This document shows, one piece after another, positions 34,902 through 37,988 of a stretch of DNA of 38,159 nucleotides. Numbering within the stretch: position 1 is the first letter of the stretch; every line of letters begins with the position of its first letter. Source of the stretch: a bacterium (lineage in GTDB: Bacteria > UBA9089 > UBA9088 > JAGUXG01); the NCBI GenBank assembly GCA_020061965.1, contig JAGUXG010000211.1, positions 1 to 38,159 on the forward strand. Direction: 5' to 3'. Position numbers and translations under genes: made by a program. The notes under the pieces are model-generated. The model was not told the DNA's origin and made no database searches. It saw only the letters and a program-made list of their open reading frames with translations.

Positions 34902-37900
34902 ATGATTAAGACAGTATTAATAAGATTTGTTTTGTGGATTGTCCTTTTTCTTCTAATAACTTCTGGTTATACCTTTGATGAAGAAATAAAAAAGCTTATC
35001 TATCCTGAAAAAGCAGGATACACAACAGGTACGGTGGTGTGGGTACACGATGGAGATACAGTAAAGACGAAACTACCTAATGGCTCTGAGACAAGTGTTC
35101 GATTGCTGGGTATAAATACACCAGAGGTAAAAAGCCAATACACAGATAAAGATGAGCCTTATGGCAAAGAAGCAAAATCTTTTGCTATAGACCAGCTTTA
35201 TGGAAAAGAGATTACCCTGTTTTATTCTAAGAATCCTAATCAGCAATATGATATATATGGCCGAATGCTTGCGGTAGTAGCTCAGGATGACAAAATATTC
35301 AACACAAGGCTTTTAGAAAATGGCCTGGCTGTCAGGCTATTTATGGCAAACGACATCATCAATTTTCCTGCCTGGGAGAAAAAAGAGGTTTCTGCAAGGA
35401 TGACAAACCTGAATATATGGTCTTATGGTACATCTGGTGTAATAATCAATGAACTGAATCCGAACCCATCGCCAGAGCCTGATGATTTGGCTGAGTTTGT
35501 CGAGATCTATAATACCAGTAATATTCCTGTTAATATTGGCAATTGGAGTTTTGGCAACAATAAGCAAACAGTTGTTCCAGAGGGAACAGTGATTCCAGCA
35601 AAAGGCTTTGTTATCTTAGCCCGCAATAATGAGGCAGAATTCAGAAAGATATACCCATCTACACCAAATAATTCCATAATTATTAATGCTAGTGGCTCTT
35701 TAGTCCTATCTAATACCTATAATCCTTCTTGCGGTCTGGTCGTGCATTTACGGGATAGCCTGGGCGGGTATCAAGACTCTTTTGTTTACAACTTGAATTG
35801 GGATAATAATGGAGCTAATGGAACAGGAAAGACACTGGAGCGAATAAATCCTGATGTAGAGAATCTTGGGGAGAGCACAAATGATGGGAATTGGGCACCA
35901 TCCTTACAAAATAAAGGAACACCCGGTACACAGAATTCTATTAGCCTTATATTTGAGCAAGGTTCTTTAATAGAAGCAGTATCCGTCTTAAAAAAGAAGG
36001 TGCTAAAAGAAGGTTATATAGATCCCACAGGAACAGATACCGAAAGAATGAGAGGCATTGTCCAATCGCTTATGGCTGGGATTACTGAAAGCAATACAAC
36101 AAAGCTGAATGATGCAGCAGTATTAGCTTCTCACTCAGGATACAACTTAGTTAGTTTCAAAGATGAGAGCCTTGAGACGCACTACATCCTGAGAGAAAAA
36201 GATGGGTTTAATCGAGGCTGGGGTTCTTACATCTTTGATTCCAAAGTGAGATCATCTATCATAATTGAAGTTCCGCACCCCTTATTTGATATGAATACCG
36301 AAGAGATAGGCATCAAAACATACTTAGAGACTAACGGTGCAGTCTTCCTTATCGCTGGAGCTCATAGAAACGCTAATAAAACAGGCACAGCTGATGTAGC
36401 CCATTTTAATCACACCATCTTTGAGGCAGTTCATGAAGAGGTGGTTGACTCTACTACCTGCAACATCCAAATCCATGGGTTCAGTCAAATAAACCATTAT
36501 GGGTATCCGAATATAGTTTTGAGTGCAGGGGATGGAAACAAACCCTATATTTTGAGAAGGATGACAAGGAAGATGAAGAATAAGGGGTTTAGTGTTGAAA
36601 TATATGACGGAATTAAATGGGGTGATCTGGGAGCAACAACCAATATTCAGGGAAGTTATACCAGAGGCATAGGCGGCACATTTATTAATATAGAGCTTGA
36701 GCAGTTTATTCGAACAAACCAGACAGAATATGAAAGGGTAATTCAAGCAATCAGGGATACTTTTATGCTTGTTCATTCGGTTGGACCAATCTTAGATATT
36801 GGTTCATCAAGTACTTATCTCGTTTACTATGACAACTGGAATGAAGACAAGATAAAAAAAGCAGAGAGATTCAATCTTGTTATCCTACATTCTGCAACCA
36901 ATATTACACCGGCCATAGTTCAAGACATCAAAGATGGCGATGATAACATAAAAGAGGTCGATGATGTAATCGTTATAGGATACCTGTCTATTGGCGAACA
37001 TGATGTAGATACGCCTGTAATCGGTGATGGCTCAGGGCCTGGTGGTTATGCCTCCTGGTATCTGGATGCAGACAACGATGATTATCCTGATAAAAATGTT
37101 TCCTTGGGAAGTTTCTATGTTGATGCAGGTAATGTTGAATGGCAAAAGATATTAAAAACCAACTCTGAGTATATCATAAATACCCTGAAGTGTGACGGTG
37201 TATTTTTAGATACAGTTGATACTGCTTCTCCATGGGGAAGTTATAGCAATACAGCCTCTGATATGTCAGGTCTTATTGAGGAGATTAGGGAATGGTATTC
37301 TGAAAGATACATAATTGTCAATCGAGGACTTTTTTACCTTGATCCCATAGAGGATGCCTATAAATATAACATTCGACCATACATCAATGGTGTGATATTT
37401 GAATGTTACTATACTGAATGGGACTGGAAAAATCACATGGGAACTATCAGCCCATACTTTAATAACAATAAAACCTACTGGGCAAATAGGGTAAATACAG
37501 AGGCAAAAAAGACTGATGGATTTACTGTTTTTTGTCTGGACTATTTGTCAAGAACCCAGAGCGACTATACTAATATGTTTGCAAACCAGGTGAATGAGGC
37601 CATAAACCAGCAGGGTTGGACAGATTATATTACGGATATTAATCTGGACTCAATCAGATTTGATCTTTACAGCCATCTAAATCCCCCCAACATTATTCTT
37701 AAAAAGAGTTGCAATAAAAGATACATTCTAATGGGTGAGGAGATAGTGTATACAATTACCTATACAAATACGGGTCAAGGAATAGCAACAGATTTAGTGA
37801 TAATTGAGGTGTTGCCAGAGAATGTGAAATTGTCCATAGTCTATAGTCCACAGTCCATAGTCAGTTATTATGTAAATGGTAATTGGCAGGAGACCTTTAG

Positions 37901-37988
37901 TGAATCTGCTACAAAGATAAGATGGCTTATTCCAGAGATAAGCCCAGCAGGGTCTGGCACAGTCAGTTTTACAGTGAAGGTAGAATAG
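34902..37988 (+). CDS. Secreted or anchored multidomain protein: SNase-type nuclease, lamin-tail domain, PghP/DUF867-like hydrolase-like region, GH114/COG2342-like TIM-barrel, DUF11
   Basis: N-terminal TM segment or signal. SNase motifs VHDGDTVK, RLLGINTPE and YGRMLAVV. LTD motifs INELNPNP and EFVEIYNTSNIPVNIGNW. Mid-region motifs IIEVPHPLFDMNTEE, IQIHGF and FINIELE. GH114-like motifs VIGYLSIGEHD, VEWQKIL and CDGVFLDTVDTASPW. DUF11 tail VYTITYTNTGQGIATDLVIIEVLPENV...GTVSFTVKVE. Confidence 0.85.
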   Translation: MIKTVLIRFVLWIVLFLLITSGYTFDEEIKKLIYPEKAGYTTGTVVWVHDGDTVKTKLPNGSETSVRLLGINTPEVKSQYTDKDEPYGKEAKSFAIDQLYGKEITLFYSKNPNQQYDIYGRMLAVVAQDDKIFNTRLLENGLAVRLFMANDIINFPAWEKKEVSARMTNLNIWSYGTSGVIINELNPNPSPEPDDLAEFVEIYNTSNIPVNIGNWSFGNNKQTVVPEGTVIPAKGFVILARNNEAEFRKIYPSTPNNSIIINASGSLVLSNTYNPSCGLVVHLRDSLGGYQDSFVYNLNWDNNGANGTGKTLERINPDVENLGESTNDGNWAPSLQNKGTPGTQNSISLIFEQGSLIEAVSVLKKKVLKEGYIDPTGTDTERMRGIVQSLMAGITESNTTKLNDAAVLASHSGYNLVSFKDESLETHYILREKDGFNRGWGSYIFDSKVRSSIIIEVPHPLFDMNTEEIGIKTYLETNGAVFLIAGAHRNANKTGTADVAHFNHTIFEAVHEEVVDSTTCNIQIHGFSQINHYGYPNIVLSAGDGNKPYILRRMTRKMKNKGFSVEIYDGIKWGDLGATTNIQGSYTRGIGGTFINIELEQFIRTNQTEYERVIQAIRDTFMLVHSVGPILDIGSSSTYLVYYDNWNEDKIKKAERFNLVILHSATNITPAIVQDIKDGDDNIKEVDDVIVIGYLSIGEHDVDTPVIGDGSGPGGYASWYLDADNDDYPDKNVSLGSFYVDAGNVEWQKILKTNSEYIINTLKCDGVFLDTVDTASPWGSYSNTASDMSGLIEEIREWYSERYIIVNRGLFYLDPIEDAYKYNIRPYINGVIFECYYTEWDWKNHMGTISPYFNNNKTYWANRVNTEAKKTDGFTVFCLDYLSRTQSDYTNMFANQVNEAINQQGWTDYITDINLDSIRFDLYSHLNPPNIILKKSCNKRYILMGEEIVYTITYTNTGQGIATDLVIIEVLPENVKLSIVYSPQSIVSYYVNGNWQETFSESATKIRWLIPEISPAGSGTVSFTVKVE
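37832..37864 (+). repeat. Short (4-unit) version of the GTCCATA heptanucleotide tract in the intact DUF11 module
   Basis: GTCCATA GTCTATA GTCCACA GTCCATA GTCAG, encoding SIVYSPQSIV in frame. Confidence 0.85.

Follow-up and report, generated by a model that had tools for sequence, protein, structure and literature searches.

A 1028-residue, putatively secreted protein joining a staphylococcal-type nuclease to PghP-like and PelA-like hydrolase modules

Deoxyribonucleases (DNases), PelA-type hydrolases and poly-gamma-glutamate (PGA) hydrolases are each under separate development as anti-biofilm or anti-capsule enzymes. The PGA hydrolase PghP of Bacillus phage PhiNIT1 has a published active site comprising H40, E45, H78, T80, S81, H103, E165 and R171, its activity being abolished by mutation of H40, E45, H78, H103, E165 or R171, and in PghL (YndL) of Bacillus subtilis the residue equivalent to R171 anchors a carboxylate of PGA (PMC6506827). 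In B. subtilis, pgdS lies downstream of pgsBCAE (PMC4497714). The glycoside hydrolase (GH) families GH114, GH135, GH166 and GH191 all share a retaining endo-alpha-1,4-(N-acetyl)galactosaminidase activity, directed at fungal galactosaminogalactan (GAG) or at bacterial Pel (PMC12054363), with D160 and E218 serving as nucleophile and acid/base in PelA (PMC12054363, PMC9894940). Pel is cationic and binds extracellular DNA (eDNA) ionically as well as other anionic polymers (PMC9894940). The subject here is a gene whose product appears to carry modules of all three enzyme types on a single chain, located near the end of contig JAGUXG010000211.1 (assembly GCA_020061965.1), the 38,159 nucleotides of which form the window analysed.

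The gene is a complete open reading frame (ORF; 34902..37988, + strand) with an ATG start, an uninterrupted frame and a product of 1028 aa before the stop codon, exactly as placed by the first-pass annotation, which had been made from the sequence without database searches. The protein possesses, in order, a hydrophobic N-terminus, a staphylococcal nuclease (SNase) domain, a lamin-tail domain (LTD), a middle domain of ~290 aa, a TIM barrel and a DUF11/CLIPPER domain, and these identities are assigned with high confidence. All six domain calls of the first-pass annotation were upheld, and its boundaries (1-175, 176-340, 340-625, 625-935 and 935-1028) agree within a few residues with Pfam, with homologues mapped by BLAST and with a two-segment alignment to the relative P0270 described below. 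The motifs it had cited were all found, namely DGDT (50-53), RLLGINTPE (67-75) and YGRML (119-123) in the N-terminal part, EVPHPLFD (456-463), ADVAH (497-501), IQIHGF (522-527), TNIQG (580-584) and FINIELE (594-600) in the middle domain, and LSIGE (695-699) and VFLDTVD (767-773) in the TIM barrel. It had also proposed that its reading would fall if the folds found no support or if catalytic residues were absent from all modules; the nuclease and TIM-barrel folds are supported and the mapped catalytic residues are present. NCBI and JGI both list an identical protein (P0001), a singleton cluster whose sole annotation is 'uncharacterized repeat protein (TIGR01451 family)'.

The middle domain (residues 343-630, 35928..36791, + strand) is predicted to be a PghP-like metal-dependent amidohydrolase, as indicated by an AlphaFold (AF2) model, Foldseek and hhalign. 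It has no match in NCBIfam, in the PDB with phmmer or in a PDB search with a 32-sequence profile. The AF2 model (predicted local distance difference test score, pLDDT, 93.9; predicted template modelling score, pTM, 0.92) had as its best PDB match PghP itself (3a9l, E 1.6e-7, probability 1.0, TM 0.45/0.61 in Foldseek), followed by PghL/YndL with a bound PGA peptide (5onj), while lower-ranked PDB neighbours belong to the zinc carboxypeptidase, N-formylglutamate amidohydrolase (FGase) and amidase_3 fold group. As modelled, the domain appears to adopt the PghP fold, a carboxypeptidase-like alpha/beta sandwich. Among the viral structures of BFVD, a Bacillus phage PGA hydrolase was the second match. 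The top match in that database was R4TMM1, a protein of 1045 aa from Haloarcula californiae tailed virus 1 (E 7.6e-7), and from this modelled likeness the haloarchaeal virus may possess a PghP-like depolymerase module. PGA production has been reported for some haloarchaea.

For comparison at the level of profiles, the deposited pghP gene (AB091475) was aligned with eight diverse phage homologues, the published active-site residues being the invariant residues of that alignment. A first hhalign run with a 32-sequence alignment of the middle domain was weak (probability 5.8%, E 0.0066); with a 155-member profile the probability was 64%, the E-value 6.4e-5 and the score 38.2. None of 150 column-shuffled PghP profiles reached this score (13.8 ± 2.6, maximum 22.4), and the reversed profile control scored 10.8. 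The residue register is the same in both alignments. In it the predicted metal ligands H459 (conserved in 152/155), D463 and H525 (153/155) correspond to PghP H40, E45 and H103, the predicted catalytic E598 (151/155) corresponds to E165, and H501 (121/155) and R604 (153/155) correspond to H78 and R171 respectively. The zinc ligands His40, Glu45 and His103 and the catalytic Glu165 of PghP would therefore all have counterparts, with Asp in the place of Glu45. This substitution had been remarked on in the first-pass annotation, and the column holds D in 150 and E in 5 of the 155 members; the spacing of the carboxylate ligand is one residue shorter than in PghP (H-x3-D against H-x4-E). The conserved motifs of the family are GWGSY, E-x-P-H-x-x-x-D, AGAHR, ADVAH, VH, QIHGF, TN-x-QG and F-x-H-x-E-x5-R, with W440, H488, R489 and D498 as further invariant residues beyond the PghP set. 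The middle domain is, judging from these conserved positions, a genuine though very distant PghP homologue with a predicted intact metal and catalytic site. The first-pass call of a PghP-like region, the least secure of the six, is supported by three independent lines of evidence: by PghP being the top PDB match, by a profile-profile score far over the null with its residues in register, and by the PGA-gene neighbours of standalone relatives.

Many of these standalone relatives are proteins of 330-400 aa that match the middle domain alone, and none has a Pfam annotation. An exhaustive hidden Markov model search yielded 3,912 family representatives at 50% identity, 3,197 of them with E<=1e-10, and the middle domain is a member of a large, undescribed family for which neither Pfam nor NCBIfam has a model. 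With a 13-sequence alignment, a scan covering a single genome for each species gave 49 loci with standalone members in Bathyarchaeia, Calditrichota, Planctomycetota, many Cyanobacteria, Anaerolineae, Acidobacteriota, Legionellales, Actinomycetota and others. Genes within 6 kb were clustered and then identified with Pfam and NCBIfam. PgsC/CapC was found at 15/49 loci, mostly immediately upstream and on the same strand; of three tested, one passed the NCBIfam cutoff of 96.45 with 139 bits and two fell below it. PgsB/CapB was found at 11/49, and both loci tested exceeded the equivalog cutoff of 222.7, scoring 334 and 315 bits. CapA (PGA_cap) is present at 4/49 loci, in Anaerolineae, and gamma-glutamyltransferase (GGT, ggt) at 3/49; the two Calditrichota loci each have a pair of ggt genes downstream. 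Altogether, PGA-pathway genes (pgsB, pgsC, capA, ggt) accompany the family at 19/49 loci, and in a rough neighbour-joining tree with no support values the PGA-linked members are spread over at least four clades, the window's middle domain grouping with Bathyarchaeia beside the GGT-linked Calditrichota. Because of these neighbourhoods and of a position like that of pgdS, the evidence supports a family acting on PGA or a very similar polymer. The linkage is seen in standalone relatives, to which the window's middle domain is ~35% identical, and is no proof for the window's domain.

For the window's own domain, PGA is a substrate that we regard as slightly better than an even guess. Several observations weigh against it. 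The domain falls outside PF05908, with no Pfam match of any kind even at E<=10, and a faint PF05908 match (E 0.055) appears in only 2/32 relatives. Identity to PghP is only ~15%; PghP has 208 aa against ~290 in the middle domain, which has an extra N-terminal helical/beta sub-domain of ~80 aa, and the invariant GWGSY and AGAHR motifs of the family are absent from PghP. Of the residues by which PghP contacts PGA (H78, T80, S81 and R171), T80 and S81 correspond to N503 and H504, at positions that are variable across the 155-member family, and no PGA genes lie within 6 kb at 30/49 loci, including that of the closest genome relative, in Bathyarchaeia (L014), and those of all Pirellulaceae. Some of these points would suit an amidase or peptidase of PghP fold with a substrate other than PGA, the other domain identities standing as described. 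Candidate substrates would be peptidoglycan stem peptides (as for amidase_3 and Csd4), a gamma-glutamyl or N-acyl compound (as for FGase) or the N-acetyl groups of N-acetylgalactosamine; in the last case, the pair of hydrolases in the protein would correspond in function to the two-domain PelA, with its deacetylase and hydrolase. The loss of the PghP substrate contacts and the 30 loci lacking PGA genes fit such a reading, as do the structural neighbours ranking after PghP and PghL (carboxypeptidase-like proteins, the FGase-like Atu2144, amidase_3 and Csd4) and the direct fusion of the middle domain to a PelA-like hydrolase, given that the hydrolase of PelA is itself joined to a deacetylase (PMC9894940). 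It is nevertheless considered unlikely: the best structural and profile matches are specifically PGA hydrolases, the recurrent neighbours are specifically pgsB, pgsC, capA and ggt over several phyla and clades, none of the 49 standalone loci has a GH114/PelA-like gene within 6 kb, and R604 aligns with PghP R171, the PGA-carboxylate anchor in PghL (PMC6506827).

Some of the family loci have features of their own. A cluster of four genes, coding for PgsB, a double-length PgsC (~332 aa), a PghP-like family member and a ~600-aa protein with PilZ and an HlyD-type adaptor, is found at L018, L020, L024, L026, L027, L030, L037, L045, L050 and L054 (e.g. L027:3572-8700), in Cyanobacteria, Sericytochromatia and a metagenome-assembled genome (MAG) of Legionellales, with no capA within 6 kb; the PilZ-HlyD protein is encoded downstream at 11/49 loci. 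The arrangement suggests a PGA-type polymer system under cyclic di-GMP control in diderm phototrophs, and no description of it was found in the literature searched. In the two Calditrichota loci (L015:1533-6574 and L016:6001-11150), the PghP-like gene is followed by the two gamma-glutamyltransferase genes on the same strand, an arrangement suggestive of a PGA catabolic operon in which an endo-hydrolase is combined with exo-acting GGTs. The nearest kin of the middle domain come from archaea (P0014, P0021, P0024, P0026, P0040; L011, L014), one being from Bathyarchaeia, and their C-termini run from a 'PEF'-type motif through a hydrophobic stretch to a basic tail, much like an archaeosortase sorting signal. 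PEP-CTERM is present on six bacterial members, one of which (P0064) adjoins an exosortase gene. The neighbourhood of P0026 (L011) contains proteasome, CGI-121 and aCPSF1-like genes. Nearby hut genes raised a role in histidine utilisation, of the FGase-like kind; this was rejected, as it concerned a single locus with opposite-strand genes in between, P0026 is exported and the FTCD-type pathway needs no FGase.

Following the middle domain is a PelA-hydrolase-like TIM barrel of the GH166/GH114/GH191 superfamily (residues 628-930, 36783..37691, + strand), recognised by profile, AF2 and Foldseek comparisons. A profile of 30 family sequences matched PelA of Pseudomonas aeruginosa (9cgy, E 2.6e-22; 5tcb, E 2.4e-21) and, less strongly, a GH114 structure (E 5.5e-9). 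With the AF2 model (pLDDT 93.5), the top PDB match in Foldseek was the PelA hydrolase domain (5tcb, E 1.1e-13, TMt 0.80), followed by Thermotoga maritima TM1410/GH191 (9euz/2aam, ~1e-13), the GH168 fucanases and Ega3/GH114 (6oj1, 1.8e-8), and the modelled (beta/alpha)8 barrel is accordingly like those of the PelA hydrolase, Ega3 and TM1410. Comparison of 5tcb with the inactive PelA variant E218A (5tsy) shows a difference at the position of the 'FE' glutamate, which is E834 here, and the 'FLDT' Asp of PelA, aligned with D770, must be D160 since it lies 58 residues upstream of E218. D770 and E834 are thereby the predicted nucleophile and acid/base respectively; among 30 relatives the former is invariant and the latter at least 90% conserved. 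The PF03537 (GH114) model matches 20/30 relatives at E<=0.01. For the window's protein it scored 19.7 bits with the whole sequence and 23.6 bits with the domain alone, below the cutoff of 27, which puts the barrel outside GH114 by the Pfam criterion. The barrel can be placed firmly in the PelA/GH114 superfamily, nearer to PelA (GH166) than to GH114 proper, and the first-pass call of a GH114-like barrel is upheld at the level of the superfamily fold, with the catalytic Asp and Glu retained. A substrate of Pel or GAG type is suggested by this kinship. Two points tell against that substrate: the GH191 enzyme of T. maritima showed no activity with GAG (PMC12054363), and the structurally close GH168 enzymes are fucanases, so the substrate of the barrel could differ. 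After the LSIGE strand there is also an acidic Gly/Asp-rich insertion (DVDTPVIGDGSGPGGYASWYLDADNDDYPDKNVSLGSFYV, residues ~700-740, nt ~37000-37120), which is kept among close relatives and gapped against PelA, and which may shape a site for a cationic substrate.

The protein begins with a hydrophobic segment (residues 1-24, MIKTVLIRFVLWIVLFLLITSGYT, 34902..34973, + strand), which, judged from the sequence itself as in the first-pass annotation, is a putative signal peptide or membrane anchor. Relatives of all of the modules bear secretion or sorting tags (PEP-CTERM, T9SS, Planc_extracel, dockerin). Next is the SNase (thermonuclease) domain (residues 43-176, 35028..35429, + strand), for which PF00565 scored 58 bits against a cutoff of 21 (residues 66-174) and the Staphylococcus aureus nuclease 1syb aligned with residues 43-176 in a PDB sequence search (E 2.3e-13), with partial NCBIfam matches to thermonuclease equivalogs. 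It is followed by the LTD with its linker (residues 176-348, 35427..35945, + strand), where PF00932 scored 52-54.7 bits against a cutoff of 34.3 (residues 176-271) and which is collinear with P0270 up to residue 348. Both calls of the first-pass annotation thus lie above the Pfam gathering scores. In the nuclease, we take the catalytic residues of SNase to be Arg35, Glu43 and Arg87 and its Ca2+ ligands to be Asp21, Asp40 and Thr41. D52, R67, T73, E75 and R121 align with SNase D21, R35, T41, E43 and R87. The position of the ligand D40 is occupied by Asn72 (35115-35117), which counts against an unaltered calcium site. In a search with the N-terminal part, one biased to proteins sharing exact words with the query, this Asn was found in the GINTPE motif of 24/27 proteins (relatives P0270-P0296), two others having GVNTPE. 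The variant is therefore a feature of the clade rather than a sign of decay, and is likely to be functional, judging by its conservation.

Such departures could also mean that one or more of the modules are catalytically dead binding domains, which would tether the nuclease to matrix polymers. The Asn at D40 of SNase, the GH domain falling below the Pfam cutoff and the Asp replacing the PghP Glu are what this explanation would draw on. However, all mappable catalytic residues are present (R67, E75 and R121; H459, D463, H525 and E598; D770 and E834) and the Asn and Asp variants are the norm of their clades, with no lineage-specific decay, making dead modules very unlikely.

The C-terminus is formed by a DUF11 domain (residues 929-1028, 37686..37985, + strand), now renamed CLIPPER, an Ig-like extracellular stalk domain often containing an intramolecular isopeptide bond, which is absent from some DUF11 domains (PMC12617251). 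As the first-pass annotation had proposed, PF01345 is over its gathering score here (33.6 bits against 24.6, residues 932-1027), and TIGR01451 of NCBIfam scored 32.6 bits against 24. A second DUF11 occurs in the window in an ORF of 381 aa (31632-32777, + strand) with Propeptide_C25, FG-GAP and fn3 domains; the two DUF11 sequences share 67% identity over 54 aa. This ORF looks like a short or truncated relative of a 1674-aa C25 peptidase encoded beside P0270 in L063, and DUF11 may be a shared C-terminal module of secreted proteins in this lineage.

The arrangement of the modules becomes clear from the relatives of residues 1-340. The closest are proteins of SNase-LTD type, 430-520 aa long, encoded in Ca. 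Desantisbacteria and in unclassified MAGs. The best is P0270 (433 aa, SNase-LTD-DUF11). Its residues 1-331 align with residues 9-348 of the 1028-aa protein (55% identity) and its residues 332-433 with 929-1028 (52% identity). Since these blocks are contiguous in P0270, the 1028-aa protein can be viewed as an SNase-LTD-DUF11 scaffold with a cassette of 580 aa, the PghP-like domain followed by the PelA-like barrel (residues 349-928, 35946..37685, + strand), inserted at the LTD/DUF11 junction relative to such proteins. The GC content, GC3 and codon usage of the cassette are those of the scaffold and of housekeeping genes, which argues against an assembly chimera or a very recent acquisition; these, together with recent horizontal insertion, were rejected on the collinearity with P0270 and the matching composition. 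The broader explanation of an assembly or gene-calling artefact joining unrelated genes might appeal to the singleton architecture and to the lack of the cassette in the closest relative P0270, but the frame has no interruption, the two junctions coincide exactly with domain boundaries, the flanks are collinear with P0270, the composition is uniform as described and the same protein occurs in two sources, so that an artefact is scarcely credible.

No other protein with this combination of modules, or with both modules of the cassette, was found among 116 search matches or, in a BLAST check, among the best 150 of the 3,912 family representatives, and no SNase, LTD, PelA-like or DUF11 sequences lie within 6 kb of the 49 genome loci. 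The combination appears to be unique, each module being a known kind of enzyme. There is a partial exception in P0104/P0119 of Ca. Sumerlaeia, a protein of 596 aa with an LTD (residues 18-150) and then a PghP-like domain (residues ~300-580); as it has both LTD and middle domain, the LTD accompanies the PghP-like family in more than one lineage. P0104/P0119 is annotated only as 'lamin tail domain-containing protein'.

Taken together, these features would describe an exported protein, probably surface-associated or secreted, that cuts three chemically different extracellular polymers. The hydrophobic N-terminal segment would putatively direct export; the staphylococcal-type nuclease, presumably Ca2+-dependent, would degrade extracellular DNA or RNA, with the LTD beside it as in other bacterial extracellular nucleases. 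The middle domain, a predicted metal-dependent amidohydrolase akin to PghP (MEROPS M86) with a His-Asp-His metal site and a catalytic Glu, would most likely hydrolyse the gamma-glutamyl amide bonds of PGA or a close polyamide, and the barrel, as a predicted retaining glycosidase, would cleave a cationic polysaccharide of Pel or GAG type. The CLIPPER domain may serve as a stable stalk or attachment module. PGA is a polyanion. With Pel being cationic and DNA and PGA anionic, a single chain with these three activities would suit ionically cross-linked composite matrices. The protein may have originated from a secreted SNase-LTD-DUF11 nuclease of a candidate-phylum lineage by insertion of the two-hydrolase cassette at the LTD/DUF11 junction, and its likely purposes would be to forage on biofilm or capsule material, to invade it or to disperse it. 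A matrix- or capsule-degrading exoenzyme is, in our view, a reasonably probable reading overall. It builds on the domain identities, the folds, the conserved catalytic residues, the link of the family to PGA genes and the insertion architecture, which the data show, and reaches by inference to the substrates, the identity of the metal, the export route and the ecological role.

Whose matrix would be degraded is a separate question. PelA, PgdS and secreted nucleases all have polymers of their own producers as targets (PMC9894940, PMC4497714, PMC11458576) and many relatives of the middle domain lie inside pgs operons, both of which would accord with a protein serving the producer's own matrix, by processing or dispersal of a self-made biofilm of eDNA, Pel-like polysaccharide and PGA. 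On the other hand, no pgs, cap or pel genes are present in the 38-kb window, the rest of the genome lying outside these data, the gene adjoins a low-GC island with Fic and HEPN/nucleotidyltransferase genes rather than a polymer-synthesis operon, and the relatives of the scaffold are simple secreted nucleases. Use on the producer's own matrix is a possibility which we take seriously while doubting it. The lack of synthesis genes in the window also counts against the main reading, and the view of the locus is cut short by the contig end, 171 nt past the stop codon of the ORF. Tentatively, and with a confidence somewhat short of even, we propose that the middle domain founds a large family of PGA-processing metallo-hydrolases (~3,900 clusters), that this family provides the depolymerase or release enzyme so far missing from pgsBC-type operons (Cyanobacteria, Chloroflexota, Legionellales and others), and that the 1028-aa protein evolved as a combined DNase, PGA hydrolase and Pel/GAG hydrolase with which an uncultured candidate-phylum bacterium breaks into or feeds on the biofilms and capsules of other microbes.

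The remainder of the window, at ~40% GC, is unremarkable chromosomal DNA from a diderm bacterium, coding for LpxK, BamA, TamB, PBP1, an AmiC-type amidase, PdxJ, YbeY and OTCase. As to the lineage, PdxJ matched only unclassified 'bacterium' MAGs, at up to ~72% among named hits, whereas the SNase-LTD relatives suggest one like Ca. Desantisbacteria. Directly upstream of the 1028-aa gene is a stretch of low GC (0.35-0.37; 30496-34817, + strand) with genes for a fused nucleotidyltransferase-HEPN protein, a 169-aa product with no Pfam match and a Fic-HTH protein, which resembles a small toxin-antitoxin or defence-like island. Beside BamA and TamB there are two adjacent genes for secreted proteins (19564-22148, - strand), one with fn3 and a C-terminal sorting domain of the type IX secretion system (T9SS), the other a right-handed beta-helix (NosD-like) protein; the sorting domain is a hint that T9SS operates in the organism.

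A natural single-chain fusion of three enzyme types represents a ready template for engineering, and because Pel binds eDNA ionically, the co-localisation of activities on a cationic glycan and its anionic partners is mechanistically sensible. The occurrence of the PghP-like family in pgsB-pgsC operons of cyanobacteria and several other phyla makes the processing and the spread of PGA-type polymers testable in diderm bacteria and archaea, and assignment of the family would allow thousands of 'hypothetical proteins' to be annotated. If the family is indeed the depolymerase of pgsBC operons, PGA-type polymers would be far commoner outside Firmicutes than is now thought.

Compared with known systems, the middle domain has the same order of ligand and catalytic residues, H..(D/E)...H...H-G...E.....R, as PghP of phage PhiNIT1 and PghL/YndL of B. 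subtilis (PF05908, M86; 3a9l, 5onj). The family of the middle domain occurs in diderm bacteria and archaea rather than in phages of Bacillus or Staphylococcus, and unlike PghP the middle domain is one module of a larger protein. The standalone genes of the family, immediately downstream of pgsB-pgsC, occupy a position analogous to that of PgdS in B. subtilis; PgdS, however, is a PGA endo-hydrolase of the NlpC/P60 type, a cysteine peptidase, with a fold unrelated to the metallo-hydrolase fold of the middle domain. The TIM barrel is like the hydrolase domain of P. aeruginosa PelA (GH166; 5tcb, 9cgy) within the GH114/GH135/GH166/GH191 group (also 6oj1 and 2aam/9eux), with a TM-score of 0.80 and the catalytic Asp and Glu in common, at an identity of 17% and with an acidic insertion of ~35 residues in the TIM barrel only. 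Its fusion partners are a nuclease and a PghP-like domain, where the PelA hydrolase has a deacetylase, and the 1028-aa protein is predicted to be extracellular while PelA is a periplasmic component of a synthesis machine. The nuclease domain of ExeM is of a different (EEP) type. Like ExeM of Shewanella (PMC6085458), the 'thermonuclease family protein' of Ca. Desantisbacteria and P0270, the 1028-aa protein joins a secreted nuclease to an LTD; its thermonuclease-LTD relatives have no further catalytic modules, whereas here the 580-aa cassette stands between LTD and DUF11.

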